Shown in pieces: positions 4,943 through 44,681 of a stretch of DNA of 64,000 nucleotides (position 1 is the first letter of the stretch; every line of letters begins with the position of its first letter). The stretch is from the NCBI GenBank assembly GCA_973895155.1, contig OZ316896.1, positions 23,766,600-23,830,599 on the forward strand. The letters run 5' to 3'. The position numbers and the translations under genes are program-made. The notes under the pieces are model-generated. The model saw only the letters and a program-made list of their open reading frames with translations. It searched no databases and was not told the origin of the DNA. The DNA is from Marsupella aquatica (lineage: Eukaryota > Plantae > Marchantiophyta).

Positions 4943-6696
4943 CACCGAGGGATACGAGTCCCTGGAAAGTTTCGTATGCCCCTCGGACTGTCCGCTGCCC
5001 ATCCATGTCCGTCTGCTGCCCGCAAAAATAGGAAAGTTATTACTCTTCCTCAAAAGTTTCCTATGAAAATCACCTTTGGTGGAGTTTGTGTACAAACAAT
5101 ACGCAAACAGGGGGTTTCAAGCCTATACTTCTGCCTCCCTGGAGAGATGGTCTACCAAATGGTCGGCCACACTTCTAAAGCCTGCCGAATCCTAAGCCCT
5201 TTCCCCTCCCTTCATTGGGTTCCTTTGCCATTGGGATCTTGTCTCCAGGTTCAGAGTTTTTTGCCCTTGGGCAATGTGATATATAGTAGAGGTCACATCC
5301 CTGGTATTTATCTTGATCTTGTTGCGCAAGGATGGGCCAGCAACAGGCGGGCAGCAGGTGGGGACAACGTGACAATGTCATTTAAATGACATAACAGGGA
5401 TACGCTGCCCCAAATAAACCTGACAATGCCACAAATGACAATCCAAGGATATGCCACCCCAAATTACACCCACACATACACACTTACACACCTCTTCCAC
5501 AAAAAAGTGTCCCCATAATTGTACATCAAAATGTGTTAATATATAGTGTACTATGTCATTTCGTACCATGATTAACCTATTTGAGTTTGTTTAAAAACTG
5601 AGTGTTATTCTATATATTAAGTACCTGGCTGTCAGTTTTTGATGTGCAATTATCGGGACGCCGCAAAAACTAGGAGGCGAATATGCAGGGTCCAAGGACT
5701 ATGTAGAAAGATTTCTATCACAGGACACCTGGACTTTACAATGGACAGAACCTACAAGATTAAATGATCCTTCAAGGTCTGCATGTCCATTGAGAAAACC
5801 TCTATTAGGGCATTTCAAACGTCAGTTGGCAAAAAGTCTCGGGCAAATGCGTATTAAAAACTATAGTGAGAGGACCTTTCACTATCTACAGTGGTCGACT
5901 TACAAAGTACAGAGGTTTCTGTGCCAAAGAAGGAGGGAATCAAAAAGGGAGCCAACGAAGAAAGGAGAAAGGGGTGTAGAAGAAAGAGGGAAGCAAAAGA
6001 GGAGCCAAAGAAGAAATGGGAAAGGGGAGGGCTAGTGCAAAAGGGCATGGGAAAATGGGGAGGTCCATGGCACCTATGCATGAGGACCAACTAGGATCCT
6101 CCCAAGTCCCATTCATGAGCAGGTTGTGAGGGGGAGGGGTAAGACTCACCGGTCTGCAGTTGCACCCCTCTGTTAGGGCGTCTCAAATACCATATTTTTC
6201 TAGATTTCTAGCTCCCAGGAGTGTCGCTGCCTGGGCCAACGTGCAGGACTGGTCGTGCACCGATTGTGGAGCCCAACCAGTCACCACCGGGAATGGTGAA
6301 CAGAACACCCGCTAGACTGCGATTAAGTGTGGCTGCACATGTAGGGTTTACAATGGTCCAACCCACAAAGTAGCAGCGCAAAGTGGCACAGGGACCAGCA
6401 TTGTTTAGTCAACCTACTTTATTGACTTCCCAGCATGAATTCACCTTAGCTCCGGGTGATGCGAGCAGGGAGGTGACATTCCGTAGCATTCTCAATGGCA
6501 TCAGGCAGTCAATCAAGAGGTGCTTTGTAGAGGGTTGTTTGTCATTTGCGTTTGCTTGGGATAAGAGATTTACCTAAGGTAGTCCCGAACTACTCAACTC
6601 TACCTGCAATATGAAATGCAAAAATATGGACAATGGACAGATTCATCTAAACTAGATGATGTTGACATTGTGCCTGACGATGATCTTGGAATAAGG

Positions 6697-7911
6697 AGAG
6701 GCAAGTACTTCAAAGCAGAAGCAGGAGTGGACTATATCATTGCACACAGAGATGCAATCACTGAAGGATAACAAAACTTGGGAGTTGGTCAAGCTTCCTA
6801 AAGGCCAGCAAGTGCTAGACAATAAGTGGATTTACAAGCTGAAGGATCAATCCACGGGAGGTGGATCAAAGGTCTACAAGGCTAGGTTGGTAGCCAAGGG
6901 ATTCACACAGGAGAAAGGTGTGGATTACAATGAGGTCTTCTCACCAGTTTCTAAGTACTCTACAATATGGCTATTGTGTGTACTTGTTATTTTATTTGGT
7001 TTACTACTAGATCAGATGGATGTTGTCAAACGTACTTTCCTCTTTGGCATCTTGGAAGAGGTGATCTTCATGAGACAGTCACTAGGTTTTGTGAAGAAAG
7101 GACAAGAGGAATTGGTTTGTAGATTGCTGAGATCCTTGTACAGGTTGAAGCAGTCACCAAGGTAGTGGAATAAGCGGTTTGACGATTGGATCCATGCACA
7201 GGGTTTTCACATAAGCGTGTTTGATCCTTGTGTGTACATATTAAACCGGTGAAGAATGTTGCCTTTGGTTTCATTGTTTTAGTACTTTATGTGGATGACA
7301 TGCTTATCGCGGCCAAAGATAGATCTAAGATTGTTAAGCTCAAGGTACTGTTCAGTGCAAAGTTTAAGATGAAGGACTTAGGGCCAGCTAAGAGGATTTT
7401 GGGTATGAAGATCACTAGGGACTTGGAGGCTGGTAAGCTATGGTTGACGTAGAGCAGTTATGCAAGGAAGGTAATTGCAAGGTTCAGCATTGGGAATAGC
7501 AAGCCAGTAAATACCCTGTTGGCTCCACACTTCAAGTTGTCATCTTTCTGTCCTAGGGATGAGACAGAAAAGGGGTTGATGTCAAAGGTTCCTTATGACA
7601 AGGTAGTGGGGAGTCTCATGTATTTGATGACTTGCACTAGACCTGATCTTGCCATGGCTATGGGCAAGGTGAGCAGGTACATATATGTCGAATCCAAGGA
7701 AGGTACAGTGAAGTGGATTTTTTGGTACTTGAAGGATACCGTGGATCATGGTCTTTTGTTTGATGCACATGCTGATAATGTGAGATCTCGTGTGAGAACA
7801 TTGATGGGATATATAGATGCTGACTAGGATCTAGATTGGAGGAGATCAACCACTGGGTATGTGTTCACACTTGGTGGTGGATGCATAAGTTGGAGGTCTA
7901 CTACTTGCAGA
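6697..7911 (+). mobile_element. Ty1/Copia (Tnt1/Tork-like) reverse transcriptase and start of RNase H, degenerate
   Basis: EMQSLKDNKTWELV, KARLVAKGFTQEKGVDYNEVFSPV, LYVDDMLIA, MKDLG, GSLMYLMTCTRPD, GYIDAD, RRSTTGYVFTLGGGCISWRS; several stops and frameshifts. Confidence 0.9.
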
Positions 7912-10900
7912 CATAAGTTGGAGGTCTACTACTAAGCATCACATCCAAAAATCCTTAGATGTGAGTAATCTGCTGGACGCCCGTACCTCATTTCAAATGG
8001 CGTTTTGAATCCAATAGAATTGGATGGAGAAAAATTTACCAAATAAGCTGCAGTGTTGACAGCTTCAGCCCAAAACTCATGTGGTAAGCATGATTGAGTT
8101 AACATACTCCTCGAGCGATCCAATAGTGTTTGGTTGAGTCTCTCAAAAACACCATTCTGCTGAGAAGTATAACTTGTTGTGAGATGGCGGGTAATTCCCT
8201 GCTCCTTACAATACGTTCCAAATTCCTCGGAATTGTATTCATCGTCGTTATCCGATCAAAGATATCTCACCTTATTACCAGTTTGATTCTCAACTTGGGC
8301 TTTCCACTCCTTAAAAGTGGCAAAACATCAGACTTACTGTGTAAAAAGTATATCCACACATACCTTGAGTAATCGTCTATGAACGTGATATAGTATAACC
8401 GTCCAGAATGTGAGGGAGTAGGGACTGGACCCCACACATCACTATGTACATACTCAAGTACCTCCTTACTGGTGTGAGTTCCAACTCCGGAGGGTTTCCT
8501 ATGCTGTTTCCCAAGCACACAATGCTCACAAAATTCCAACTTACAAGATTGCAAATTAGAAAGTAATCCTTTCTTCTGAAGAATAACCAAACCTTTTTCA
8601 CTCATGTGGCCCAAATGGAAGTGCCACAGTCGGGCCGTCTCCTCATGAGATAAGGTTACATTGGCTTCATCACAAACTACACTGCCCTCCAAAACGTAAA
8701 GATTGTTATGTCTTTTTCCCTTCAATACAACTTTAGTACTAGTTGAAACCTGAAGGACACCATTAGTAGAACTCCACTGATGGCCATTTGCTTCTAAAAC
8801 TCCAAGTGAAATGAGATTTTGCATCATGTTGGGAATATGTCTCACATTCCTCAACGTTCTTACAGCACCATCAAACATCTGAAATCTTACAGATCCAAGT
8901 CCAACAACTTGACATGGGATTCCATTTCCCATCAACACTAACCCGTTGGAAACCGTGTAAGAACTGAAAAAATCTCTCTTAGAGAAAATGTGAAAAGTAC
9001 ATGCACTATCTAGAATCCAGTCATCGCTACTTGGATGTGACACTACGTTGAGAGCATAACCTTGACATCACAATATGTCATCATCATCGAGTAAATCTAC
9101 CTCATGCGAACTCGATGCCGCGTTGGCAGATGCAGTAGGGTTCTTTACTCGACAATCCCTTTTCATGTGGCCTGGCTTGCCACAATTCCAACATGCAAGA
9201 GGCTTCCTCTCTTGCGATTTCCCTCTGGATTTAGATCTCCCCCGTGATGTAGATCTAAACCTGTTTTGTTCATTCGTGCGTTGCGCTGCTCTCCCACGGT
9301 CCACGTTCAGCGCAGTGCCAGAAGAAAATATTGTCTGTGATTGACCCAACTTCTTCTGAGCATCATCAGACAGCAAGGAGCTCACCACGTCATTATACGA
9401 AATGGATTTAGATCTCGGTACAAGAGCACCTGTTTCAAGCCCTCATATGATGGCTGTAAGGAGCTTAGCAGAACAAGGCCTTATCCTCATCTTCAACTCC
9501 TTTTCCCAGGTTTGACAGATCCACTGCTAGACTGTCAAATTCATCCAGGTGATCCTGCAGCTTTCTCCCTTCCTTAAGCCTGAGGCTCATCAAGAGAAAC
9601 TTCTTGTAAAGCCGGTCTGACGCATCTTCCCGGTAGTACTTCTCTCTTAGAGCCTTGAACAATGACGCGCAATCCGCATAATCATCCAGCTGCTTGATGA
9701 TGTGCAGCTTGAGATATAGCATCACTGCATTAACAGCAATCACCTGCTCCTGTCTCCATTGCTTCTCTGAGATCTCCTCTTCTCCATCATACTACTCTCG
9801 CAAAGAGAGCAGATGAGCTAAGCCCATGGCCCGTAGAACACCCTTCACTTGTTTCTCCCACAACAAGTAATCAGTATGACCATCGTACTTCTCCACCTCA
9901 AACTTCACTCCTCCAAATCTAGCCATCTCCCTCTTCTTCCCCACTACCATCAGCTCTGGTAGTAACACAGCTTCCTCCACTGCACGCCGCACCAGTGATC
10001 GTACCGGTGTTACAAGTTCCTCCTCAAATGGTAGCAGCTCCTCCTTAGACTCTCCGTCTGATCGGCGCGATTCTGAAGCTCCACCGACGCCAATTCTTCC
10101 AGTATCCTCTGAGTCACTCAAATGAAACAATCACAAAAAAATGTCTTTTTTGGAAACTTCTCATAAAACTCAAAACTCAACACCGCCGCGTAGCCCACAA
10201 AGCTAGGAGTCCAATACTGAAAGCCAAAATCAAAATCAAAATTCCACGGAAAAGTTATTTAAATTTTGGTTGGGGTGGGTAAAACCTTGGGAAACTCCCC
10301 CGTTTTGACCACCTCGGAGAATAACCAAAATACCCAGTACAACCCGTCGTCGGAATCATGATGTGATTGGTGCACCGCGTTGCTAACTCCAGTGGCAACA
10401 TCCTCGCCAAAAAAGAAACAAAAAGTTACCGTTTGCAGGCGGAATCTTTGTCGGACGGCCAAAAAATAGCTCTCTATTTTTGCAGTTTGACAGGTCTAAC
10501 AGGGGGCCATTCCCCCTATCAGAGCGGTTAAAATGGAGGGTCACATGCCTGAGATGACCAATGAAAGGAGAGTCGGGAAAAAAACAAAAATTTGCCCTTA
10601 AAAGGGGGGTCTAAGCCCCTTTAAACAAGAATACACGTAAAAGGGCCGGGCCCGGGCCAAATACGCACGGTGGCGTACAGGCGGCCGTAGCCTGCCGTGT
10701 ACAGGCACGGGGGAGCGGGTGAGCAAGGGTGAGGGCAGGCGACCGGCTGCCATCGGCAGGTCACAGCCGCTTCGCGGCAGTAGGCAGCACGTGTGTATAC
10801 ACACAGAAAAAATCCCACTAAATTAACCAAACACAATTTTGCCAATTAAAGTGAAAAAAAGCATGGGTTTCACACCTTAATCGTCGCTCTTTTACACGAG

Positions 10901-11522
10901 AAAGTGACCGCCGCCGACGGGAAAAGGTGTTGAATTACACCGGCATAGTCTGCAGCTCCAGCAGAGTAAAAAAATTCCGTCGCGATGCCTTCACTCCGCG
11001 TCAAGTGCCAATCCCGGGCTCAAAACGACCGCCTCATCGCGATCAAACCCGTTGAGCCGTGGCACTTCACGTTTCTTCCACTGAGTTGGACGTCATGAAG
11101 AGAAACCCAATTCAGATGGGAACAAGTTTCATAGCTTGTGAAAAAACCTGAACGCCTCCTTCACTTGTCACGTCGCACTCGGTAACAACTCGGCAGCAAT
11201 CCAGCTACTGCAACGACCAGCTAGCTTCAACCTTCAACTTGAGCTATAATATGCGATCCCTCCCACACCGCATAGCTCACACCGTTGAAAAATGCAAACT
11301 CTGGTCTCTCCCCCGAAATACCGTCGAACACGAATAAACCCTGAACAATGCAAACTTTGATTCCTCCGCACCACGGATACCGATCAGCGAGTTCTAACCA
11401 TCGTTAGAAAGCCCTCTCACTAACCTATCCGCTCAACCACACACATTCAAGTTTCATGCGATGAAACTCTGAATGTACCATCGACACTAAACGTTGAAAA
11501 AACCTCGTCACCTCCCAGGCAT

Positions 11523-11534
11523 GCTTTGATACCA
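11523..11534 (-). other. Primer-binding site (tRNA-iMet type)
   Basis: Minus strand TGGTATCAAAGC, one mismatch to TGGTATCAGAGC, 2 nt after the LTR end ...TCAACA. Confidence 0.85.
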
Positions 11535-11536
11535 CT

Positions 11537-11872
11537 TGTTGAGCATAGATGACATTTGCAACGGCAAGCCCATGAACCATCCAACGCACAATAGTCAACA
11601 CAGAGAGATACGTGGTTCACCTCCACATGAGGCTACGTCCACGGGAACACACAAGAGCTTTACTGCACTCTAGGCCGACCGGCCATACCAAGCATCCATA
11701 GCACAAGCTCTCCCTATCTCTCAACTAGCTCTGTAACAATGAGCCTAAGTTCCACCAGGGTCTGGCTTCAGCCCTAGCTATATGCACAAAAGATAACATT
11801 AGCTAAGTCCTAACCCGAGTTAGACTAACTGTGGTTAGCTCATGAGTCACAAGACTAGAGCAATATCTAACA
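11537..11872 (-). repeat. 5' LTR of the Copia element (~336 bp)
   Basis: TGTT...AACA termini, adjacent to the PBS. No second copy seen in the window, so the distal end is inferred. Confidence 0.7.
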
Positions 11873-13091
11873 AACTCCCCCTCTCACAACTACCCCCTGC
11901 CTTCCCCTCTCGTGACTGCCCCGTCTCCCAGGCTTGATGTTTAGAGCTTCAAAATGTTTACGGCATTCTTTGTTACGACATTCAAAAACTACAGCATGGG
12001 AAGAGGGTCACATCGTTCTTTGTTTGAGTTGACCATGGTTGGGCCTGAACCCATTGGCATTAACGCCTACGACCCGTCTCATAATTAACTACCCCACAAA
12101 ACATTGGCCCGGATGAACCCTGTTGCGGTGCACCACTACAGCATATTTGACACTTTTGCGAAGGTATTTTTGTCGACGCTCTTGTATTTCTGATGGGCGG
12201 CGCTTGGCATAATTTGTGAATCAACCCGCATCGCAATTTGCGATTCTATCCCTATTGCAAAGATAATACTTGAAGCACATTATATCGCTAATACATTGCG
12301 AAGTAAATGATTTTGCAAGTTTTACCGAAACGCGCCGAATGGAAAGGCGCCTTCTGAAGACGCCGAAATCACTCGCCGACTCTGAAACTAACTGATGTAA
12401 AGATTTGTGAAGAAGGTTGGATTGAAATTGTTTTGCGATAGTATTTGTTTGACAAGTTTAAGAATGTCAGAGGATGGAAGATTTGCGAAACGGTGAGAAT
12501 ATGAAATTTGTGATTGAATTTGCATCACAAGGTTGCGAAGAGCATTGTATGGAAATATTGAGAAACGAAAAGCTTTGTAGAAATTGCAAGTCTGGTGAGA
12601 TTTTGTGAGCTTCGCAAATTGTTCGCAAACTAAAAATTAAGATTTTTGTGAGGTGAGACAATGAAGAGGGTGGATGGTCCAATATATGGATGGGGCAGGA
12701 GGGAAGAGGAAGGGAGGATGGAGGGAGGTACAATGAAGGATGGAAAAGGGAGGGAGTACAATGGAAGAGGAAGGAGGGAGGAGAAAGAGGAAGGGAGGAG
12801 GAGGGACAGACGTACCACGGAGGAGGGAAACACGAGGGTGACAATGAAAATTATGGAATAAGTAGGAAATAAAGTTATATTGAGCAACAGAGGTTAGATA
12901 GAAAGTTGCATGTAAAATTCACAAGTGATCACAATAAAACAATACAATACATATGTCATGAGTATGACTCTTCAAAAGTGAATGGCAAATCTAAATATAG
13001 ACAATACTTTTTTATATCACCAAACATGAACAAATCAAATATAACATGAACAAATGTGTAGGCTGGACCCAAGTGCATATAAATATGTCCC

Positions 13092-16000
13092 TCACACTTG
13101 GTCCTCATCGGCCTCAAGGTCATCTAGGTCTGATACAATAACATTTGGCTTCTCAGAAACAATGGAACGAGAATGTGGCACATAGGTGATGACAATTGAC
13201 CACTCGGTGTCTAAGGGGTATGGAATGTAGAAACATTGCTCCAAGTGTGATGGGAAAGCAAATGGTTCTGATGTTTGCCAATGAGATGCTTGAACACTAG
13301 TGGCACTTGTCTTCAACCGTGTAAACCCACTCTCATCTTGAAGTACAGTGCAATTTTGACCAACAAACTTGGTTCACTTTGAACCACTTGCACTTGAAAA
13401 CATATTCCTCAAACTTTGAATGGTTGTCATATGATACCACCAAGATCTCCACTATCTTCCCATAGTATGGCACAACATCTCTAACAATGTTCCTGTCATG
13501 GCGGTTGCTTCTGGAGTCTTGAGAAAATTCCCCTTGAACTCCACAATCAAAAGTACGACCCCTCTTCTCATCAAGGGAAGAAACCCTAAAATTAACAAAA
13601 CCCACAAATTTTTATTGCACAAAAGATACCATTAATGTAATAATCATCAAAATATGACACCCATCCCTAAATAGCCAAAACCCACATGGCCTATGGCATA
13701 AATATAGAAGCCAACATTACAGTTATGGATGTCATTAATTATAATAGAAAGTTTTTAAACAATAGAAATAACTAATCAAAATAAGGTCTACATGAATTAA
13801 TAGAGGAAGAAAGGTTAGGTACTAGTGGACCTGAAGTGTCTCCCTTGTGTCCACATAGCCGTCTTGGATGTCACCACTCTCAAAGGGCCATGAACAATGG
13901 TCCGAACGTCATCTGTGATGGTAGGAAAGTGGGACACATCTCCTCCTTGTGTCACCATGTCATCCAACTCAAGCAACTTTTGCTGCATATACTCATGCAT
14001 CTTAGGAAAAATTCTTGCTCTTTGACTTGTTCTCTTGGCATTCTCATAAAACTCTCTCCATTTCTCCATGATATTACTATTACTCAACATAAATGTTGTC
14101 AATTGTGACCACTCTGTTGATGTCAACATGCATGTTTTTGTGGCACCTGTTAAACGGTCCTCCTCCTCTTCTCTTTCCTCCATCCAAGTACGTGGACAAG
14201 TAGGATCAATGGTGGCCAAGATGTTACTACAATAAAACATACTCTCTGCTGCCAAGTATCCTGTGGCTATGCTTCCCTCCACCCGTGCACGGTTACGTAC
14301 ATAAGCCTTCAACACCGCCATATAACGCTCAAGCCAATACATCCATCTACAATGCACTGGACCAGCAATGGCAACCTCCCGCACAAGATGCACAAGTAAA
14401 TAAACCTGACAATCAAAGAAGGAAGGAGGAAGGGCTTTCTCCAACTTGCATACCACCTCAGCTGCCAATACCTCCATCCCAGGGATCTCTTCTACATATA
14501 TCTCCTTTGAGCATATCCATCTCAACAAACGACCCAATGACCAGATGGCATCTTGCACTTCTTCACTCCCTATACCTATAATTGCCACTGGCAATATATG
14601 CTGCAATAGGCGATGATAGTCATGTGTCTTCAGATATCGTGGCCACTTGTGATTGTCCTCCATCCCAAAATCTTTCCGAAGGTTGGCACCATAGCCTGTA
14701 GGAAACCGCATCTCTCCTATACGGTTTCAAAATTCACGTCTTTGACCAACACTCAACACCCAAGGAGCAGAAGGACGATTCTCCACACCTGTGATAGGAT
14801 CAGTTGTCACCCAAACATCTGGATGCATTTCCATCTCCTCGCATGCCTCTCTAAAATTAGTGTCCTTCTCCCCATAAAAATGCTTTATCAAAGCCTTCCC
14901 CACATTTCCCTCTATGTGCATGGGGTCTAAGAGATGGCGGATCTTTAACTCAGACCAATAGGGCAAAGTGGCTAGTATACTCCACCTGGTCAAACCTGTC
15001 CTATCAAAGGTGAAGGAATCATTTGGGTCTGCCACCCTATCAGCTAGTGACTTCCAATGTGCAAAACTTGTTGCATCAGGAATTTCACGCTCATCACCAA
15101 ATGGCATGTCAAAGGAGGAGAATAGAAGTGGGTCAAACCTCATCTCATGCCCCATGGGAAGAAACTTTGTATGCCCAATATAAACAATCTTTCTAATCCA
15201 TGAACAATATGTGGCCATGTCCTCTAAGCTTGGGCCACAAGTAGAGCAAGCTTTGTACCCCTGAGTTTGCAATCCAGAGACAAAACCAAACCCTGCTTAC
15301 ACAAAAGAAATCAAACCATGCAAACTTTATGTTAGGGTTGTCACATGAGAAACAACAATAGGAACTACACATTATCAAAGGGTTGCAAATGGCATGGAAG
15401 TCATCTTACTAGGATAGTCATGCATTGTCCAACAAATGATCCCTCTCAATTGAAAGACACGTGGAAAACCTCCTGTAATTTTCCTGCCATCATATGCCCA
15501 CACTCCATCCCATAATTTTTGAAGTTCTCCAACCAATAGTGCCAAGTAAGTGTCAAAGTTCTTCACCTTTTTTGGACCTAGGATAATCAACGACAATAAA
15601 AGGAACCCCTTCTTCATGGATAGCCATGGTGGGAGGTTATAATTCATGACAACCACAGGCCAAACTGATGTAGGTTGCCCCTTTCCTCCAAGTGAATGAG
15701 GGCTAACTCCATCAGATGCCTATCCTAGCCTCACGTGGCGAGGATCATGTGCAAAGTCTGGCCATGTTGCCTCAATATGTTTGTGAGCAGGGGAGTCAAC
15801 TGGCAACCGCATGACACCAGACTCTGATCGATGAGTAAGTGCCATACCATCAACTCTGCCCTGGGCCCTTACTCCGTGTATATTAATGGAACCGGCCTGT
15901 GAACGTCCCTCCCCTCCAAACCCCTTCAGTACTATTTTTTGCCCTTTTAAAAAGCTCTTATTAGTATTAATAAATTCCTTTTGGGTCATTAAAAAAGCCC

Positions 16001-17673
16001 TTTAGGCTATTATAATCTTCATCAAAATGACATTAAATATGCTCTTCAGGTGTTATAAAAAAAATTATATCATTGAGATTCTAAGTCAAACAGATTGGAA
16101 TAAACATTTCACATTATCACAAGCAAAAATAGGAACAACATATTCTTTATGTACACACTTCCTCGCAAGAAGGTAGGAGTCAAGGCATTTAAGAGTCAAA
16201 CAAACTCATACAAGTATCCAAATTTAAGCTGTAAACATCCTACGCTGTCATCTATGAAAACCGTAAGTCCACATTGCACTTAAGTTTGTCCCATAGTTTG
16301 TTGAGCATATTCATCATCGTTTATAGGAAAGTTATCCTTTGAGTCTAAAGCATTGGAAAACTTATTACATTTAAACCAATTCTTTGATCACTAGAAATGA
16401 TAAATATACACCGAGGTACATAAGTGACTCTGGATTGAGACTCGATCTCTCTCTATCACTTGTGGCATCACAGAATCCCCATCTGACGCAACACGCATTG
16501 AACAACGGTGTCTACTTGACCTCCTCCTTCTTTGGGGGCCCTCAAGGCCATATATACCCCTACACCGTTTGATATAGAGCATCAAAGAGATCAACGGCAG
16601 ACCATTTTGGTCATCCATAAATGGTACACGAGACCCCCTAAAGGCAAAATTTCCCCTATCCCCCAAAAATTCAAATGTGTTTGCACACCCCAAACCAAGG
16701 ATGTAATGACACGTGGATGAATGAGTTATTGACGTGTGGCGGCCCTATATGCTTTACCCTTACATAAAACTACTTGAACCCTATTTTTTAGATCACCTTG
16801 GTTCATTATAACATGGAACCCAATAAAACAAAGGGTTGTTACATTATAAGCGATTATAACTATTATTCAAAAAAAGGATTTAAAAACCCCTTGAGTTGTT
16901 CGCACGGGTGGTCCCATATTAGTTAAGCTAAGGGCCCAGGGCAACTCTTCCAAGTCAGAACACCGATACATGTGCAACAACCAAGGAATGATGGGAAACC
17001 AACGAACAGCCTTCCTTGGCACCTTCTTTGTTAGCATGTTGGGGTCATAGCGAGGCTCATCACATGTTGTACATTGTGTCATGTTTGCATTGGCCCCATG
17101 AAATAACATGCAATCATTCACACATGCATGAAAAATATGATATTCCATGCCAATAGATGAGAGAACACTCTTTGCCTCCTTCCAAGTTGCTGGCAACACA
17201 TTCTCAGTGGGTAACATAAGGTCATGGCAAAGTGCAAACATATCAGATAACAAGGCATTGCTTGCCTTGTGTTTGGCCTGTAGGTTCATCAACCCCAAGA
17301 TGGCTGAAAGACGACTCAAACAAGCACCCTCATAGATAGGTGTTCGGGCATGTTCCTCTGCTTCTTCCCATTGGCGTTGTCCCTCAGGGGTATGTCTTGG
17401 GCGTGGATCATTGGGGGGCACCTGTCCTTCATTGGGAAGGTCATCACCAGGGTTGTCGGCACCAAACCAATCAATCATAAAGTCATCCATGGCTCTATCC
17501 TGGTCATCAGTTACTTGTTCATCCGTCCGAGGTACCTCTTCATCAGGGTTACTGCTTCCACTAGCACTTGATGAGGAGTGTGACTCTGATCCATGTCCTT
17601 CTTCTGGCATACCCATTTCTTGATATGTTGCTCTCAATCTCCGTGATAACATATTTGGAGAGGGTCGCACATT
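13092..17673 (-). pseudogene. CACTA TnpD/Tnp2-type transposase (Transposase_21, DUF4218, DUF4216-like regions), multi-exon, disrupted
   Basis: HACVNDCMLF...CTTCDEPRY, RWFPIIP, ASDG, YNLPPW, TMHDYP, GYKAC, LDPMHIEGNV, LKTHDYHRLLQ, PPSFFD, RWMYWLERYM, RARVEGSI, YYGKI, FKCKWF, EPFAFPS. Introns ~15293-15409 and ~13587-13829. Stop near 15720, frameshifts, and a nested insertion. Confidence 0.9.
15858..16942. mobile_element. Non-autonomous TIR element (~1.09 kb) nested in the CACTA transposase
   Basis: Perfect 14-bp TIR GCCCTGGGCCCTTA / TAAGGGCCCAGGGC with AACTCT directly repeated on both flanks. Removing it rejoins ...SDLEEL|MVWH. Confidence 0.88.
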
Positions 17674-17849
17674 CTAAAAACAAAGCAAACAATTGAAAGT
17701 TATATTGCAAAGAGAACACACACAAAAATGGGCTAGGGGTGTGCAAAAATGAAATAATATTGGTTGTGGTGAAAATACAAAACATGGCCAAAGGCCATAT
17801 GTAGTGTCATTTTATATGCAACATACCACCTACGACCCTTAACTTAACC

Positions 17850-18664
17850 CTAATCCCACTCATAGTGAGTAAATAACTCATCCCCTGAGTTAATGGTCCT
17901 TGTCGCTATAACTAGGCAATGGTCATGATGATATGTCTGGCCATAAGGTGCTGGCGGAGGACCCTCAATGAAAACCCACTCACAATTTTGCCTACGCTTA
18001 GGGCGAGTCCCCACGGTACTGTTTATGAAACCAGCAATATTCCCAGTCCGTATGGGGTCCCCATCTATGACACGTTGCTCACTATACCTTCTAGTGTTTC
18101 CATCAAAAGTATCCATGTCCAATGCATAAGTCTTCCACTCAGGGTGTTGTGCAAGGATCATGTTCCAATGTCTTCTCTTGTAGATGGGTCCACCATAAGG
18201 AAACAAAGTAGGCCCCTCTCGGCCGCGTCCACCTCTACCACTCTCGGCGTCCACAATGATGTCCTCACAGCAAAAACTCCATAGCCATGTCTATCCCCAA
18301 GTGTGGAAGGGTTGATAACCCAACGTCTACCCCAAACCTCTACCTCCTCACCATAGGAAAGTTGTTGTGGCAAACCAAGAATCTCAGGATCCCAGTCCTT
18401 GATGATAGGGACACATCTGCCAGTGAACTCGCAATCACCCCACCTACTCGTAACCACTGCCTTGTACAAATCAGTATCCCCTCGGGCCCGCCTCTTGGAA
18501 CGCTTTCTCCCTCTTGGGACAATAGCCTCAACCCCAACTTCCCTAGGACTGGTGGGCCTTGCCGCTAGACCCAAGGCTTGTGAGAATGCATTGCCTATAG
18601 CATCTAGAACACCTTGTGATGGGACATAGGGTGCTTGTGCCGCAGGTCTAGGCCTATTGGATAC
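17850..18664 (-). CDS. SET-domain (lysine-methyltransferase-like) exon inside the CACTA element; one 1-nt frameshift near 18268
   Basis: Corrected reading: NPSTLGDRHGYGVFA/CEDII...LFPYGGPIY...IDGDPIRTGNIAGFINS...NCEWV...CLVIATRTINSGDELFTHYEWD*. This gives the SET motifs GxGVFA, YxG, (R)FIN(H) and ELxxxY in order. AG acceptor at 18666-18665. Confidence 0.8.
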
Positions 18665-18767
18665 CTATTCCACCGAAACCAAAACAAACAAAAGTAGGTG
18701 TGAAATTAAAAACCTTCAACCATTGAGTAATGGGAATAGGGTAGGAAAACTAAGGCATAACACTTAC

Positions 18768-19001
18768 CATATGAGATGAAGAAGCCCCTGCCGTATGACG
18801 TCCACAACGCCCATATCTCTCAATATGTTGGGCACATATGTAAGATTTTTGGGAAACTTGACCCACACATCTGGAACATTCACAAAGTTGACGGGGTGGA
18901 CCACGAGGAGGAGGTGCGGTCGTGTGATGTTGAGGTGGAGGTGGTGTATCTTCATCAGAGGAGGACGAGTCTGTGGTGGAGATTTCAGAAGATGAAGACA
19001 T
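18768..19001 (-). CDS. First coding exon of the CACTA transposase locus (Transpos_assoc-like Cys/His motif)
   Basis: ATG at 19001; LCECSRC...ICAQHIERYG resembles the N-terminal C-x-C-x2-C...H motif of CACTA transposases; ends at a phase-0 GTAAGT donor (18767). Confidence 0.75.
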
Positions 19002-20305
19002 ATCCCCTGTAACAACATATAATTAAAATGGGCATGTTATGACCAAAACATACCACAAAATGATATAAATCAAAGTTCCCAAATAATGATGATAAGAAAC
19101 CCAAACCAAAATGACCATAGCAATAAAAAAGGTACCTTTATGAGACCCGGGCTCAGCAGTGCCAACAGGTCTTGTGGCTCTAAGATAATTAATGAACCCA
19201 ATCTGAAAATATGAGGGAAAAGCTGCAAGCATTCCATGTATATGTAAGCACAATAATCTGGACCAGACATAAACAAAAAACCCTATATACATGTCCCCTT
19301 TATACATAGTGGCAACCAAAAGTGTTAAGTACATGAAAGGAACACTTGAGCCAGTCATGCAATGTTTACCTTTCAGATGCCCGGGCTCTCACAATGCATA
19401 TGCACTAGTATCAAATCATCAAAAAGTGCCGCACCCTGCAAACTATCATATATTCCCCTCCTTTGTTAGCAAAACCCATGCCAATCCCTTTTTGATTCAT
19501 AAACCCAATGAACCTCTCTTAAACCCAAAAGGCTGCAATATAAATCTCATGAAACCTTGCTTTGTCTTATCCAAACCTTCAACCCCAAACCGCATCCTAC
19601 CTATTAAACCTAAATCTGACTTACACATAAAACCAAACCTTTCTTCAACCCTAGAGACCTTTCTATTTAAAAACCCCAAACCCTAAAACCCTAAACCCAA
19701 ACCTTACTTATTTCTTGTAAACCAAATCCCACACCTTTATTATTTTTTCTAAACTAATGTAAACCCAAACCTTAGCCTAAACCAACACCATACATAACCC
19801 ATTAACCTGAAATCTGCCTAACCCTTCAAACCCGCCTTCAAGTATTATCTAACACCCAAAACATGGCCAAAAAGCATTCCAAGTATGAGTATAGAGGGGT
19901 CCACTTTACCTTTGAAAAAAACCCTTTCAAATGAAACCAACATTCCCCCCAAGACGAGTTGCCAATGTCTTGCGAAGCCACTTCCTTCGCAAATACCATC
20001 ACAAATTAGAATTGAGTTTTGCAAAGCGTATGCTTTCGCACGACCTTCAGAAAAACAGAGCCCGAGAGCATTTCTACGAGAGAGCGAAGGTGTTGCGAAA
20101 CCTTTCACGTTGCAATGGTTTCGCAAAATTGAGAAACTACATGCAAAACGAGAAGGATTGCAAATTGCGAAACGGGTTGCTTCGCAAGTCTTTCCCGCTT
20201 GTACTTTAGCACTCGGCCGCGGCGTACTCAACGGCATTTGACAAATTTCAAGCGTAGGGAGGGAGAAGGGAGCTTGCACGCGCTTGGGGGGGGGGTGGCT
20301 TAGCT

Positions 20306-22270
20306 ATGGATTCCAGTGGAGCAAATGGAGGTGATGGGGCAGGGGTGAGTGACAGTGGCAATGGGAATGAAGGCAATGGGGAGCAGGAGAGGAATCGATG
20401 GACCGATTTGATGGCTGAGCACCTCAATGCAGCACAGTTGAGCCGCTTAGATTTGACTACACCAGCAGGGATTGCTTCTTTGAGTGCAATCCTAGGGCAA
20501 GCCTTGCAAACGGGAGTAGCTGCAGGGAACATTGCAAGGGAGGAGGAGCAAAGGAGTGCAGCTCAACAGAAGGCAAGAGAGAAGAAGCATAAGAAGGAGG
20601 AGAGGGCCAAGGCAAGAGTGGTCTCACCTGCTGCCCTGGAAAAGAAGAGGAGGAGAGAGGAACGAGATGAGATAAGAGCACAGCGGGAGGAGCAGCGAAA
20701 GAAGGAGGAAGAGAGGAAGAAGCTGCCTATGATTGCCTTGATCGAAGGCATTCCTACTGAACTGGCCTACACCGGGGCAAAGAGCACTATTAGGCTTATG
20801 GTGCGCTCCAATTTTGCACGAGGAGTTGAGTGGGGGAAACTCAGCAAGGCAGACCAGAGGAAAGTAATGAGTCAAATCAAAGATTCATTTCAAAATGGAG
20901 CAGAGATTGATGAATAGTGGCTTGCAGATAGAATTTCCAATTCAATGTCTCAAGCACGGTACCATGATAGGAAGAAGGTAAGGGCCTACCTGGCAAACTT
21001 GGAGGAGTACAGAAACGTGAGGAGGCCATTGCAATTCACTGAGGACGTGTGGAATGCCTTTTACAAAGTGGAGGTGCAGATGAGAGCTGCCAGAAACCTT
21101 CTCTTCTGGAAGGAGATGGAAGCCAAGGCACAGAAGGCCGGGAAGTCCGACCGAGAGCTCAAGGCAATGGCTGAGAAGGTGTCTCACATGCAGCACATTG
21201 TGGATGAAGTGGGGGCACCACCCCAAAAATTCATCCTTGCAGTTGAGCGAGTCAGCAAACGGCCCAAGACCACGCACAAGATGGGCCAAGGTGGACTTCC
21301 CGGCCAAGGTGCACACTTTGTGAGTGGGCCCTCTCCTCCCCTGCTTCTGTTTCCTTGCTTTCAATTGCTATCCAAACCTGCAATGCCCCCCTGCATACCT
21401 CTTCTTTCTTTCTTACGGCCTGCCTTGTACTTTAGGTCACCCTGACACATTGCGTGCCTTAGAGATTTCTCGGAATTTTTTAAAAACAGAGTTTGCGAAG
21501 CTTTTGCGATGCGGGTTGCTTTGCAAATGTTTCACAAAGTCTATTATGGCATTTTTTAAAGTTATAGATGCGAAGCTATTGCGAACTAACCCGCTTCGCA
21601 AACTACTTCGCAAACAGCCAATTTATTTGAATTTGCAAAGCGGGGAGTTTCGCAAGTGTGTATTATGTTTAAAAAATACCGCTAAGGGTTATTGAGCCCA
21701 GTTTTGTGTTAGGGAGCACCCTATTAGCACCTCCATGCATTTTTCTTGGGTTTATGGCATATTAACCCCAATCTATTTTGGTTTTGGAATGTTTGGTTGT
21801 GGTAGTATAAGAGGTACCGCAGGAAGATAACAGCAAAAGAGATGGAGATAGGAGCTGCGCATGGAGCCAAACATCTCTTTGACTTGGTTGACGCAGAGTT
21901 GGCGACTGTAAGTGCATGTATCCCCTTCACTTTTTCCCACCCAATCCACTTATCTTTTCATTCCGTAAACCTAAACCAATTTGGCGTTGTGCTGTGCAAA
22001 CAGGATGATGAGGATGCCAGTGATACCAACAGCACCGATGAGAACAATGAGGGGACCACGACAAAGGGGCCCAAGGTAGGAGGGAGTAGTGGATCTGGAC
22101 CAGTAGGAGGAGTTTCCCAGCAGGAGGGGGAGGAAGAGGAGGACGAGGAGGACGAGGAGGAACCAGATGTGGAGGAGCAGCCAGCACCACCTCCTGTGCC
22201 ACGTCCGGATCGTCGCAAGAGGGACAAGGGGAAGAGGCCGGCGACAAGGAGTAGGAGGACCCCATTCTAG
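20306..22270 (+). pseudogene. CACTA TnpA/Ptta-like accessory gene, 3 predicted exons (20306-21319, 21806-21907, 22004-22270), one in-frame stop
   Basis: Divergent from the transposase. Coiled-coil, W..LS...Q helix, HKMGQGG followed after splicing by F|YKRYRRKITAKE (Ptta-like), acidic tail with basic NLS-like end. GT/AG sites at 21320, 21805, 21908, 22003. TAG at 20915 interrupts an otherwise continuous frame. Confidence 0.65.
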
Positions 22271-23097
22271 AGCTTGGTGGTGTAGTGCCCATGGGATGCC
22301 CATTTACTTAGTGTAGTATATAGTTTTGATATGGGTAGTCTTATAGGGACCTAGCTTGTCACATGACACCCATCTAGGGTTTAGGGTTTAGGAAACCCTA
22401 ATTTCTGTGTACCTATCAATTTTCTATAAAGCAATTTTGATTCAGACCTCATTCTCCGTGTTGGACAACAAGACCCCAACCATAATTCAAAACTCTAAAT
22501 CTAAACCCTAGCCTCAAGACAGCTTGCGAAACCTATGCGAACAACCCAAATCGCATATTTACCATACTGAAGGTATCGCAAACATTATGCGAACCACATA
22601 AGTTCACACAAATGCGAAGCGAATTTCATGGCATAACTACGGTCATTCATTGAATATCGCAAACATATTACCAAACTCGTGGAATCGCAAATATTGAACT
22701 GGTCGATTATTATCGCAAGCCTATCGCGACGCCCACGGAGTAGCTTAAATGTGAGTCCTTTGCGATTCTATTCGTGTCGCAAGTTGCGAAGGTCTTGCGA
22801 AGGTCTTGCAAAAGACCGGGTGCGAACCTTTGGGCTTCGCAGTTTGCGATTCTATTGCGATGCGCGATACTTCGCAAAGGCGAGTTTTGTTTTTCGATTT
22901 CCTTTGTTGTTTGCGATGCTTTCAAGTTCGCTAGCTAAAGGTGTAGGTAGTGTTGTAGTGCACCCGACTGCCTCGTGGGCCGCCCGTGTTTGAAATTATT
23001 ATTTTACATATGAGACACCCAATTGGAGAAAGTTAGTGACTGATACAAATAGTAAAATAAAATCTAAATCACTAATAAAAATCCACAAAAACAAACT

Positions 23098-25045: not shown

Positions 25046-28000
25046 CTAGAAAAACACAAGCCCCTTTCCAGCTGTGGCGAATAAACTGTACTCAGCAGTA
25101 GTTGTACTGACGGCTGTGCTCCCACCTGAAGTTTCGTTCAAGGGTCCACATTTGCTAATATCTGACAGACTTTCCATTCCCTTGTCAAATGTAGTCTCGT
25201 TCGATGGAGCGACTAAAGCAGAAGGTTCTAGGTCGTTTTGAGTCACTGCTACAGGACCACCAAAATGGAACAGGGAGAAGCCTGTTGTGTCCACTTGGAC
25301 CGGGGAGTCATTCAAATCGTCCTTTTCCCCTTCAGCAACATTTGAGGTTGTAGAGGCAGCTGTCTCAGCTGGTACAGAAAGATTGTCTCTACTTTGGATG
25401 ACAGTAATTGTTTCAGCAACTGGCACGGAAGATATTCCTTTACTCTCCCCAGGATCGGGTTCCTTACCATCAATCCCACCAGCAGGTCCACCACCAAATC
25501 TTGAGAGGAATATAGAGTCGCGTAAATGTAGTGTATTGAGACAGTTTGGGAGGTGTCCGATACCTGTACCTTGTGCACCACTTGGTGGAAGGCAAAGGGG
25601 TGACAAACACCCCATAGATTGCGCCAAGCTATTAGTTCCAGGTATCAAGAAACCTCCTGGCTGAGGTAGAGGTAGTACACCGTTTCTTGCTCCCCATGAT
25701 ACATGTCCCTGATAGTAGCCAAAACTGGAATGAGGATGCACGTGAATCGGAGCTGGCATCATGGTGGGAATGTGGACATGTCGGACAGAACTTTGCGACA
25801 ACATCTCCGTGGAAGACAATACGTTTTGAACCACTATTGATTCATTACCGTGCTTTCCTTCGGGCGTTATAAACTGAGATCCTGTAACATCATTAGGTTG
25901 ATTACAAGAGGTTTCTTCAACCTCTGGTGATCGGAGACACTTTCCAAACACTATCCCGCAATTTGCATCAGCACCGTTCACCCCTAACTTGGCCTGCACG
26001 TTGACATTGACGCTTTGCTCACTTCCCCTGTCGTTTACAACCAAGTCTAACGCCGAAACTAGACCTGCTTGGCCTGGAGGATCACCACCCAGCGTACTGT
26101 GGGTCTTAGCCAAGTTTTTACTACTGCTAGGCTCTGCATTTCCAATTCCAACAGGAGTGGGAGAGTTTTGTTGGCCTTGCCCATGTTCCTGAGCCTGTCG
26201 AAAATCACTCACTAGACTTTCCGTGGATGCTATGGCCACCCCTGGCTTTCCTTGATCGACAATATCTGGTGGTCTCGCCCTTCCTGTTGGTCTAATTGAT
26301 ATCCCATTATTGTTTCCATGAGAGAGGGTGCGATCTACAAAAGAAGCACTTCGTGAAATTGGACCTGCTAGTGTATTTGAATTATGCAGAATCCAAGGCG
26401 ACTTGCTGGACACACCATTTTCATTAGCAGAATGTACAAAAGCACGATTTGGTGGCTGATGCCTACCGTTTGGCGTGCTCCCAGGAAGCTCCCCAACAGA
26501 TGCACTCCTACTGTGACCTTGCCTTGCCACCTCCATAACATCTGAATCAATCTTTTCCTGTTGCCTCTCTCCCTTTCTCTCAGAAGAGAGTACTGTATAT
26601 ACCTTGCCTTTAGACCCATCAAGTTTATCTTGCGGGCGTACCAAATTATAGTTAACATTAATGGACAATCCCCTTCCACCAAAATCTACCGTCTCCCCAA
26701 TCTTACTTGGAATCTCCTTACCGCCTACTTTCGACGCGCTTCGATGGTTTTCCTTTGCTCTCAAATTCGTTTGTGATCCCCCACATCCACACTGCGGGAA
26801 GTCATCCAAACTAAGTGGTGCATCACCATTGCGGCGGTGCCAGCTATCCAGACATTTCGGTCCATCTGCCTCGTATCTATGACCAGTGTTCTTTGCCTGT
26901 AATAGCCGACTTGGAACCTTATGCTGGATAGGGCTATTTTCCACACCTGGTGCTGGTGCTACCCTTGTAGGATTTCGGGCCTCAACTGGGTCCAGAGTTT
27001 CTCTTCTGGACTGTCCCATTCGATTTCCTTCTGATGTCTGAGCTTGTCTACCTTGAGACCTCCTTTTGGATGACTTCGTCCGCTCTACAATAAAAGCTCC
27101 ATTGCCATCTCTCAAGCTCAGGGTATCTTCAATATCAAGCGCAGTAGACGAGAAATCGAGATTGTCTCCACGTCGAGTTTCACTATCAGCTCCATCAGCT
27201 GAAGGCCTCGCCTCTGCCATGTCTGGTGACGGGGGTCTTGCAGAGAGGATATCTATATCACATAGGGAACTCTCTTCATCCAGATCAGCAGAATTCTGCT
27301 CTGGGTCTTCAATGTCAGCGGATACTCCCGAGACAGACCCATTCGGGGTTGTCTTTGAAGAATGACTCTTGCACTTCTCTTTCTCTCGATCTTTTCCTTT
27401 AAGTTTCTCTTTCCTCCTAAGCTTCTTCTCTTTTTCTTTCAATTTTCTGCGTTCTCTCCTTTCCTCCTCTTCACGCTTTTCATCTTCTTCCTCCTCTAGA
27501 AGCTTGTTCTGTAGGGGCAAGCAAAGAAGACCACCCATCAGATTTTAGTGATGCTAACTGTGCACTGAAATTCGCAGCTCAATCGCTTCATTGTAGTATT
27601 CAGATGTTTGACGGGTTAGATATTAATGACATAACATCCTGCTCTGCAAAACAAGAACATAAGGCGGACCTGCTTTTCCAGTGTGGTGATCTCTTTGCAA
27701 GCCACACGAACACGTTCTTCTAGCAGGCTAAGGGCAAGACAGACAAAAATGCTATGAGCATTTTGCCTTGCAGTACCCTCTCGGAATGCCTTCTCCACCT
27801 GATATAAACAGTGCACAACAGCTGAGTAACAGTACGAAGTGGACAGGCGTCATAAGCTAAAAACATAACAAATATGCAGGTAATGAGCTCGAAAGCCCGT
27901 CCTGTAATCGGAATACCAAGCCCAAGTAGGTCTGCACATTTGAATCCTGTAGAGAGCTGGTGTGTTTAGATCCCAGCAGATCTATCATATAACTTCACCT

Positions 28001-31000
28001 GCTCTTTAAAAATCACTGTAGCAGCATCTAGAAGGAAATCTCGCGCGAGCTCAGGACTCTTTGCATGCTTCTGTGGTCGGGTTCCTTCGCCATCTAATTC
28101 ATTTCCATCCTTGTCCATGGAGTCATCATCCTACAAGTCAAAGAAACAAATACTTAACCCTCATTCATGTCTTACGATATTCTAGATAACATCTCCCAAC
28201 TCCGAAGCAAACAGTCAATAATGGACGACACTGGGACCGTCATCTCACCTCTTCCTCTTCTATCTCCTCAGCACGTTCGAAAAAACGCTGAATGCTCTCT
28301 CCTTTCGTGATTGATACATAACCATCACCCACAATAAGACGCCGATGAACACAAAGTTGCCCCTTCACGGCATGGGCTTTCGCTTGCAGCTCGGTATATC
28401 GCCCATCACGTTTGCAGCCTCTAACTGTGATGTAACAAGCTGCAGTGTTACCCAGATCAAGACCTTCAACGTGAATACTCTCGGACAGGCCAACATTCTC
28501 GAACCCCAAGATATCTGATTTTCCTTCTGCAGTCCCAAGAGCCCACTCAAAGTGTTGGTACACGCTACCACCATCCCCTGCAAAACAATCCCGCCAGTCC
28601 ACTTGTACCACACTATCTGAAACCTGCAGAAAGCAATGTCCTGAAGTCAAGTAAAGCCATAACAAAGTTCTTACAGAATGCAGCAAATGACGAATCAGCT
28701 ACCGATGAAGAATGCTTGTAAATGGGAACAGAAGAAGACGACAGATCTCTTACGCAAACAAAAGATAGGAATGCACCTCGTATCTAAATGCAATGTCGGC
28801 AGCACAAAACCACCGGGTACACCTTGGCTCTTTTCGAGTTCGCTTCAGCTCTTTCATCTCCTTAAACTCCCGCAAGACATTTCGCCGGCAATCTCGACAG
28901 AATCGCTTACTATCAAATCTGTAGCGAACACACGCACTAAGACATGGATCAACGCTTTACAACTCTCTTCAGAATTATTGCACGAATTACAACAAAAAAC
29001 AGACAAAGCGACTCAACACGCCAGGCAAATTTTATTATTCACCTAAAATGGGCACAAAATCTAGAAAACTCAAACATTGCTATGGCACCCTCAAATGATA
29101 ACTACCGCACAGAGCCATGACTTTCGAGAGGAAAGGGCTGCTCTGATGAATTATAGACACCAGGTTCGGAGTCCAGTTCATACTCTGGGTAAACACACTG
29201 TACCATGTCATAAGATTAACATATTGAAACTTTACTAAGAGTTTCTGAATTTAAAGTCGTTATCATGTTGATCATTTTGAGGCACTGATCCTTGTTGATT
29301 CCTCCGCAATTCCAGCCCCTTTTGTGTAAGTATAGAAGGGATGTCTTAACTACCTGAACATAAGTCTTTCAATAAAATCTTCCTCTTTCATTCGCAACAG
29401 TGAGCGTCTGGTTTCTTCTCCCAACGCAGACCAGAAGTCAACTAAAGCCTCACAAGAGAGTCTCGCAGTATGAAGAGCACAAGTCTCTTTCATCCCGTGG
29501 CCTCTTCCATTACCTCCAAAACTTCCACTGCTCTGGCTAATCCAACCTCTTCCTCCTCCTCCACAAGCATCGGGATAGAGCAGTTCCCGTTCACGCTCTC
29601 TTGCACGTGCACTTTCAAAAACCTAACAAAAACCATACAAATTAGGTGCCTACCATGGCAAGAACATAAACCTCAAACCAAAATCTGGAAACCCTAGAAA
29701 GTTCCTGAAGTCGACGAGCATCCAAATGTGAACGACTTGCTCCAGAAAAAACTTTCCGAGTCTTTTAGCCCTAGAGGAAAATCCAAAAGTTTCTTGACAT
29801 TCAAACAACAATCAAGGAATCTGGTAGGTACATTCTGCAGCACCTCAAGCGGTGTCCCATCCAGGAAGCAGTCCAAAACTGTAAGCATACTGTCACGAGT
29901 GGCTGCCAGCCCACCCCAAGGGTGAACTGAAGGATCCCTGGTCTCATCCTGTAAGCTTGACTTTTCTCCGTTGGTGCCAACCTCTGATAGGTGTTTGTTG
30001 CATGCACTTGAACCATTTCTATAGCCAAGTAGACCCGCTTGCAAATTCTTCCCGTATGAAACTATCTGAGCATACCCTTCCACTAAAAGGCCATGGCACC
30101 GTGAGCAGTACAAGTTTTTGCGAACTTGCTCAAAAAGTGACTGCTTATCAATTCGAAGAAGCTCGCGACGTGCAGCTGAAGAGAGTCCGCTCCAAAACTG
30201 CTCACAAGGAAGCATGATTTCATGGTTAAATACTAGAGAGAGCAAGATGAGCACAAACTTCAAAAACCCCAGCCACAGACTAACTTGCGAGAAATGACAA
30301 AAGATGTGCAGATTCAAATTCACTAGTCAGTTCCAATACTGGATACTATATTTCAAGTACTTTTCAAATATGCCTTGTCCTTGCGGATGAGTACTGTATG
30401 TACAGCTAGGTACACCGCAATTAAATATGGGGATCCTAATGTCCAAAGTTAAAGAACAAAGGTCTCCAGTTTCCACTAGTACCCAATAAAAGGCCCATTT
30501 GACTTGCAAACACATCAATCACACATCTAATAATCTTTCCAATGAGGTTTTTGGCACTTCCTGTAAGGCTTCTTCAGTCTAATATCTCCAACAGTTTCAA
30601 GCTCAAACTCCGATCCACTAATACTTATCTACTAGTGCAAAGACGGTGTACGATAGAAAAATTCGTCATTTAGACGAATCGCAAAAACATTCGATGCGTG
30701 ATCCATCCTTTCGATCGTCAATTTTGGTGCATAACATTAGGGACAGTCAACAGCAGTTACGCTGCAGATGCATTGCAGAACGGTAGGAAACTGATCAAAT
30801 AGTATAAGATAAGAGCGAATGCGGCGACGAATAACACCAACTCTACAACAGCGGGGTTTGATGATCAATGGCGCAGCATCCTAGGAAACTAATGTAGCTG
30901 TCAGATTCACAAACCCCACAAGATAGCAACCTTGTTTTCCGTGTTGCAGTAAGTTTAGGACTACTAAGAAACGAAGTGTACACATTGTAATCCAACTGCC

Positions 31001-37965: not shown

Positions 37966-37999
37966 CCGCCCCAGACCCAATGACCATGCGTTGCATGAA

Positions 38000-43863: not shown

Positions 43864-44100
43864 TTTTGTTTCTTAGTCACGACCGTATTCAAGCAACAAA
43901 ACGCTCAGCAAAAGATAGCAGACCGGCATAGCTCAAATTCAGATTTAGACGGGGCTAGGATCCTACCTTGTGCACACTTTCAACACCACCTTGTACAATA
44001 TGGCTGAACTCTGGTGCACTAGAAGTCACAGCATTTGCTTTTCGGTTGTCGCGCATGACAAGTCTGAATCATCAGTGTATTTTTCATTAGAACCTTGATT

Positions 44101-44655: not shown

Positions 44656-44681
44656 CGTATGATTAAACTCAAGTGCTCTGG

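Follow-up and report, generated by a model that had tools for sequence, protein, structure and literature searches.

A SET-domain exon conserved within the transposase gene of a bryophyte CACTA transposon family

Introduction

A stretch of 64,000 nucleotides from the liverwort Marsupella aquatica (GenBank assembly GCA_973895155.1, contig OZ316896.1, forward-strand positions 23,766,600 to 23,830,599; hereafter the window) contains a decayed transposon of the CACTA/EnSpm group, in which an exon encoding a SET domain lies between the first coding exon and the exons of the transposase, TnpD. The anatomy of this element, the conserved linkage and splice sites, the selection and the SET fold are demonstrated here, and a possible role of the SET protein in keeping the chromatin of the element active is weighed against its alternatives.

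The element and its genes

The element reads CACTAC inward from both 12134 and 22960, that is, it has CACTA...TAGTG termini with a short terminal inverted repeat (TIR) in which 9 of the first 11 bases match, and it is flanked by a target-site duplication (TSD) of CAC at 12131–12133 and 22961–22963. The TIR is weak alone, 12 other TSD and TIR pairs of similar score existing within the window, but clusters of the motif TCGCAAA at both ends support these boundaries (Table 1). Motif density, counted as TCGCAA(A), reaches 14–39 per kb in the clusters of the element as compared to 0.3–0.6 outside, and the full TCGCAAA occurs 19 times within the element versus 8 times in the remaining 53 kb of the window; the same four-cluster spacing is found upstream in two metagenome loci, L005 and L007. 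Sequences of relatives span all 30 bins of the element. With its termini, 3-bp TSD, Tnp2-type transposase and subterminal repeats, the interval is a CACTA/EnSpm element. Among the Pfam matches to the TnpD pieces, Transposase_21 and DUF4218 pass and DUF4216 falls below the cut-off. An initial annotation of this DNA had placed the SET exon ahead of the TnpD exons, on the same strand and inside a TSD-bounded CACTA element, and Pfam, the termini, the TSD and the subterminal clusters all bear this out.

Table 1. Features of the CACTA element in window coordinates
Feature	Coordinates	Strand	Details
CACTA/EnSpm element, decayed copy	12134..22960		10,827 bp; basis: termini, TSD, transposase domains, relatives
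Left TIR and subterminal TCGCAA(A) cluster	12134..12650		9 sites, 17 per kb
TnpD transposase exons (Transposase_21, DUF4218, DUF4216)	13092..17673	-	Pfam
Nested insertion inside TnpD	15857..16943		1,087 bp; 15-bp terminal inverted repeats; 4-bp duplication
AT-rich spacer, SET stop to TnpD acceptor	17674..17849	-	176 nt; unalignable to relatives
SET exon: linker, N-SET region, minimal SET domain ending YEWD*	17850..18664	-	1-nt deletion near 18268
GT-AG intron, exon 1 to SET exon	18665..18767	-	103 nt
Coding exon 1: Ser-rich start and Cys/His motif (CxCxxC...H)	18768..19001	-
Motif cluster between the divergent genes	19901..20305		7 sites; likely promoter role
Second gene ORF2, divergent, likely TnpA-like	20306..22270	+
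Motif cluster in first intron of ORF2	21320..21805		7 sites
Right subterminal cluster and right TIR	22501..22960		18 sites, 39 per kb

The likeness of the divergent second gene, open reading frame 2 (ORF2), to TnpA rests on a motif that we take to be typical of TnpA. ORF2 is likely the TnpA of the element: the clustered motif shares its TCGCAAA core with CCVTCGCAAA, the sequence bound by Arabidopsis TnpA-Spm1, which is described as an anti-silencing factor that lifts the silencing of its own family (bioRxiv 10.64898/2026.08.24.746577). The predicted SET protein is likely a third product beside TnpD and this separate TnpA-like gene.

The window copy is dead, and statements about function apply to the family. 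Its TnpD is broken by the nested insertion, by stops at 15720 and 14727 and by a 4-nt shift near 13367; its SET exon lacks a single base near 18268 that is present in relatives in nearly all sequencing runs; and its ORF2 carries a premature stop at 20915 that is absent from other copies. The nested insertion itself is non-coding, has perfect inverted ends of the form TG...CA, resembles either a miniature inverted-repeat transposable element or a solo long terminal repeat (LTR), and shows lower depth than the CACTA element in the sequencing runs.

One predicted donor, two predicted acceptors

Coding exon 1 opens with an ATG at 19001, comprises 78 codons (234 nt, phase 0) and meets its donor at ATG|GTAAGT. 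Between 18767 and 17600, four AGs are preceded by a tract with 10 T or more, and only those at 18664 and 17673 are TAG acceptors, opening phase-0 frames of 168 and 268 aa, respectively; the coordinates that the initial annotation gave for exon 1 (19001–18768), for its phase-0 GTAAGT donor and for the two in-frame acceptors hold. The SET protein of about 350 aa that it proposed, with a Cys/His motif and a linker ahead of the SET domain, comes to 349 aa by count, but exists only once the deletion near 18268 is bridged.

The splice sites are conserved in relatives, where exon 1 and the SET exon are separated by an intron of 116–118 nt with identical phase. The donor, H[VM]|GTAAGT, is present in 12 loci, and so, in 12, is the context of the TnpD acceptor, AG|N[IV]RPS, one of these having AA for AG; all are in phase. 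DNA similarity stops at the SET stop codon and resumes at the TnpD acceptor 17673, and the spacer between them likely holds the 3′ end of the SET transcript and the polypyrimidine tract of that acceptor. Since the codons N[VI]RPS, which lead from the TnpD acceptor to its first Met, are conserved, an upstream coding exon is implied for TnpD; the SET exon of the window needs one as well, because no Met occurs in the 130 codons preceding its frameshift. Annotated Sphagnum and Calypogeia gene models, whose evidence base is not stated, contain the predicted joint of exon 1 with the SET exon. For the proposal that exon 1 is shared, the conserved sites and the gene models thus offer support of an indirect kind.

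As to its identity, exon 1 is similar to the Cys/His module with which CACTA transposases begin, given the domain order that we assume for these proteins. It is likely the transposase's own N-terminal module, and this resemblance points to the first coding intron of TnpD as the place where the SET exon came in. In the relative P0113 the Cys/His motif matches PF13963 below the cut-off (14.9 bits vs 27.7, E 0.031), and exon 1 of the window has no Pfam match and no Atlas match. No candidate came out of a search for proteins with exon 1, nor did an exon 1–TnpD model turn up in the protein set, which had been picked via the SET or TnpD piece and was unable to reveal one. Upstream, the minus strand of 19007–19440 likely contributes two non-coding 5′ exons, with donors near 19135 and 19370 and an acceptor 6 nt before the ATG; the alignments of relatives break there.

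A different joint, through a donor inside the SET exon, would give a SET–transposase fusion, the transposon-borne counterpart of SETMAR. Three gene models (P0043, P0046 and P0057) join HCL to NIRPS, and a fourth, P0119, runs a whole SET domain into Transposase_21. However, the internal donor is weak and variable (GTTATA, GTGTTA, GTTTTA), the models join at differing places and most lose the final Tyr, and the stop directly after Tyr-x-Trp is conserved, so that we consider a fusion very unlikely as the working product.

A genuine but divergent SET domain

The SET identity proposed in the initial annotation is confirmed both by Pfam and by fold. The piece 17853–18290 scores 27.1 bits against the Pfam SET family (cut-off 22.4, E 6e-6), and 4 of 5 intact relatives exceed the same cut-off. 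The structure model of the relative P0001, disordered in its N-terminal part and confident over roughly residues 150–351 (161 residues with a predicted local distance difference test score of at least 90), finds SETD8, ATXR5 and MLL1 in Foldseek with prob 1.0 and E of about 1e-7, and yields VIA matches with Z up to 12.1 and a root-mean-square deviation of 2.6 Å over 124 residues. Judged by this model, the product of the SET exon has a genuine SET fold.

The motifs GxG, LFPYxGxxY, GNxAGYINS and ELxxxY are kept among 40 aligned proteins, with the two glycines of GxG in 39 and 40, Asn295 in 36, Glu343 in 37 and Tyr348 in 35, the roles of Asn and Tyr being assigned by position within known SET motifs instead of by residue-level superposition. 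No host SET subfamily among E(z), Trx, ASH, SUVH, ATXR5/6 and SETD8 emerged as a clear best, several classes being tied by fold, and the best sequence E to a eukaryotic SET subfamily is about 0.01. Pfam scans of the relatives found neither the flanking domains of these subfamilies nor a DNA methylase domain, Foldseek against viral models returned nothing at E 0.001 or better, a narrow profile found no SET domain in the PDB, and NCBIfam gave no match for 6 proteins. Minimal SET enzymes, among which the viral vSET also counts, are the closest structural comparison: SETD8, SET7/9, ATXR5 and the SET domain of MLL1 share the core fold and the motif positions with the family but are only 15–28% identical to it, and the family differs from them in lacking the His of the NHS motif, in its 3-residue tail, in having an N-SET region of its own and in matching no subfamily.

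Family, linkage and selection

The element belongs to a multi-copy, multi-species, CACTA-linked family, as the search for other copies that the initial annotation suggested has brought out. The SET piece retrieved 13 longer proteins. One source is Calypogeia fissa, at 87% identity; the others are a number of Sphagnum species and metagenomes, and the clusters reach 360 sequences. When 1.84 billion proteins were screened with a profile, 106 matched, the named ones among those looked up being from Riccia sorocarpa and Calypogeia. Thirty-three metagenome loci were examined. All 20 in which the SET end is complete and followed by at least 250 nt of sequence run into TnpD about 140–150 nt after that end; as for the other 13, 9 are too short or cut off by a contig boundary, and in 4 the SET domain is truncated internally and no transposase is present. 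Six loci have exon 1 together with at least 2 kb of upstream sequence, and 4 of these (L002, L005, L007 and L009) carry ORF2 there, on the opposite strand. Considering that L005 and L007 have one CACTAC terminus in common but different flanks, the unit has moved as an element.

In two further SET clades, 35–45% identical to the SET domain of the window, Riccia gene models have Transposase_21 fused with SET-family parts, and the Cys/His motif also precedes SET in distant relatives (P0085, P0099 and P0113); for these two reasons the SET–transposase pairing likely predates the clades. In the tree of the family the base is unresolved and the bootstrap had not settled. The most distant members, P0147 from Calypogeia (with a weak DUF5763 match), P0143, P0165 and P0166, have no transposon-type N-terminus. 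Together with a giant-virus SET cluster, found among the nearest outside look-alikes by Atlas features (0.96), they offer a lead, and only that, on the origin of the exon. The SET core is about 77% identical in DNA to Sphagnum-type copies, with a synonymous divergence (dS) of about 0.8, and 87% identical in protein to the liverwort copy. This is high for the age of the moss–liverwort split, and horizontal transfer is possible. Separately, dS is lower in SET (about 0.8) than in TnpD (1.1–2.2), which may reflect module exchange.

Selection on the SET core was gauged by the ratio of nonsynonymous to synonymous divergence (dN/dS), a value below 1 having been among the checks that the initial annotation named. 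It is 0.11–0.19 in 25 between-family comparisons of the window with the loci, which amount to about two independent comparisons since the metagenome loci mostly belong to one family. Against L010 the ratio is 0.114 (bootstrap confidence interval 0.057–0.195) for the SET core and 0.123 for the TnpD core; against L001 the SET core has a bootstrap interval of 0.064–0.217. Exon 1 gives 0.15–0.21 in 12 loci, and the TnpD pieces 0.06–0.21. By these ratios the SET core is under purifying selection, like the transposase.

Passive capture of a host gene fragment that evolves neutrally, which the initial annotation had argued against, would fit the frameshift in the window copy and the SET ratios of 0.18–1.22 between near-identical metagenome copies. 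Yet TnpD decays alike between such copies (0.55 and 0.93), and this parallel drift of both toward 1 is expected after insertion. The low ratios between families and the parallel decay of TnpD largely refute passive capture; the linkage is moreover kept in three clades, the exon is multi-copy and encodes a SET fold, and no close host donor was found in searches that included the profile search of 1.84 billion proteins. We give passive capture next to no credence.

A proposed mechanism and its alternatives

The reading that we propose is that a bryophyte CACTA family carries a conserved SET exon as an alternative last exon, encoding a small lysine methyltransferase that would keep the chromatin of the element active; we regard this as evenly poised between right and wrong. 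A single promoter near 19.9–20.3 kb would drive one pre-mRNA. Splicing of 18768 to 18664, with a 3′ end in the 176-nt spacer, would probably yield the Cys/His-linker-SET protein, and skipping to 17673 the Cys/His-TnpD transposase. The SET protein is likely active as a methyltransferase, to go by its motifs, and may need a partner: it would, with reasonable though slightly lower probability, bind S-adenosylmethionine (SAM) and methylate a lysine, a partner or second subunit perhaps closing the site in place of the post-SET region, which normally closes the SET active site (PMC3178901). Somewhat doubtful is the last step, in which the target would be a histone on the element, reached via the ORF2 protein bound to the TCGCAAA clusters, so that the mark opposes host silencing. 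A fuller version would have an old land-plant CACTA lineage encode, as an alternative last exon, a histone methyltransferase of an undescribed SET class, with the choice of splice and poly(A) site switching between an activating mark and transposase and with TnpA aiming the enzyme at the TCGCAAA clusters. Such a self-contained epigenetic switch is a tentative idea that we think unlikely to hold in full.

A number of observations weigh against the proposed reading. At the level of the element, ORF2 has no TnpA family match and no relevant Pfam match. At the level of the family, the N-SET region is less constrained than the SET core (dN/dS 0.37–0.76), and the independent dN/dS comparisons are few, as noted above. 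Concerning expression, no clean splice joint appears among the listed joints of 7 runs, a result that is uninformative on whether the gene is expressed. Three further points, bearing on the first exon, on catalysis and on the substrate, each open onto a rival explanation.

First, Sphagnum-type copies carry a Met of their own just past the SET acceptor, and 263-aa ORFs that begin there make up many of the Sphagnum and metagenome entries. The SET gene could hence form a transcription unit of its own within the transposase intron, or be read from a retained intron, exon 1 not being shared as protein. Against this stand the window copy, which has no such Met before its break, the conserved phase of the acceptor, an intron of just 103–118 nt, and the Cys/His motif ahead of SET even in the distant members listed above. 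The probability of a separate unit is slim.

Second, the His of the NHS motif, a feature of SET domains, is replaced by Ser in 39 of the 40 aligned proteins, and the post-SET region is nearly absent, the window clade ending 3 residues past the Tyr and most others 2–18. Very short post-SET regions accompany inactivity in the PRDM constructs described in PMC3178901. It is conceivable that the protein is a catalytically dead reader or decoy, which would bind histone tails or host partners and shield the element. On the other hand, GxG and the positions of the cofactor Asn and the catalytic Tyr are kept among proteins only about 30% identical, and the SAM contacts reported in the same paper are made by backbone atoms and the Asn side chain, not by the His side chain. 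We find a dead decoy quite improbable, if a little less so than a separate unit.

Third, no structural match singles out a substrate: enzymes acting on H3K4, K27, K36, K9 and H4K20 fall within about 2 Z units of one another. An active methyltransferase could thus be aimed at a non-histone target, such as TnpD, the ORF2 protein or a host silencing protein, or could deposit a repressive mark that damps the element or host genes. The giant-virus look-alikes and the lack of any reader domain in the 30 relatives scanned fit this picture; two indirect arguments speak against it, namely that the top fold matches are all histone methyltransferases and that transposon cargoes, as far as they are described in the sources cited below, tend to counter silencing. 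A non-histone or repressive target is unlikely but deserves to be kept in mind next to the activating histone mark that we propose.

Relation to known systems

SET cargo in transposons is already known from oomycetes and red algae, as described in the sources below. Literature searches found no land-plant CACTA element with SET cargo, although Repbase, subscription journals and bioRxiv supplements (e.g., a Bostrychia accessory-gene table), which lay beyond them, may hold one. The initial annotation likewise knew of no such cargo in plant CACTA elements; precedents exist outside land plants, even within the EnSpm superfamily. Plavaka elements of red algae, members of that superfamily, have SET in a stable accessory gene, PAG2 (bioRxiv 10.1101/2025.02.11.637652). 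PAG2 is described there as also containing a DNA methylase domain and as one of three accessory genes; here, in contrast, the transposon is a classical Tnp2 element, and a minimal SET exon without a DNA methylase match in Pfam is embedded in its TnpD unit. In Phytophthora, DNA transposons of the HarbingerS, MuDR and proto-Helentron types likewise carry a SET methyltransferase-like gene (PMC12730594, PMC4067079), but they belong to other superfamilies and another kingdom, a common first exon does not figure in the accessible descriptions, and the proto-Helentron SET is presented as a separate intronless ORF likened to Clr4. The accessible parts of these three reports give no function for the SET cargo.

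En/Spm elements of maize and Arabidopsis, for which alternative splicing and split genes are both described (PMC13547354, bioRxiv 10.64898/2026.08.24.746577), share with the family the CACTA termini, the TnpD domains and clusters of a motif with the TCGCAAA core, and in some of them one gene gives two spliced products. The alternative product there, however, is the DNA-binding TnpA, which recruits host demethylases, whereas in the present family an enzyme would be made instead, and what is likely TnpA has a gene of its own on the opposite strand, arranged head to head and not head to tail. The comparison with maize TnpA/TnpD splicing drawn in the initial annotation thus fits loosely. VANC of VANDAL elements resembles the SET protein in being an accessory protein encoded by the transposon, in its link to motif clusters and in its proposed role against silencing; unlike the SET protein, VANC belongs to the Mutator superfamily and has no SET domain, and its anti-silencing action has been demonstrated, whereas here such action is inferred.

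Surroundings in the window

The element lies between a retrotransposon and a host gene. On the minus strand of 6500–11900 is a decayed Copia gag-pol with a primer-binding site near 11530, which the CACTA element adjoins just upstream; a Copia LTR at about 11540–11875, preceded by what looks by eye like a purine tract, suggests tandem elements with a common LTR. On the other side, an intron-containing host gene adjoins the element on the minus strand of 25046–30326. Farther along, two pentatricopeptide repeat-like genes in opposite orientation (41500–45800 and 57700–60800) are about 80% alike and built of 303-nt units, the sequence of 1–1091 recurs at 44682–45813 with 94–99% identity, and a degenerate 19-nt tandem array occupies 37968–38476.

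Significance

The plant anti-silencing factors VANC and TnpA are DNA-binding proteins, and TnpA-Spm1 is described as using host demethylases (bioRxiv 10.64898/2026.08.24.746577). If the proposed reading is true, a histone writer encoded by a land-plant transposon would be a strategy distinct from theirs, and it would operate in a group of plants in which some transposons are marked by H3K27me3 instead of H3K9 methylation (PMC8616336). Since bryophytes are transformable and intact natural members of the family exist, the question is testable. The family has a bearing on Sphagnum annotations as well, in which its clusters of 360 and 112 sequences inflate the number of SET genes, and it may represent a compact methyltransferase with a new specificity.

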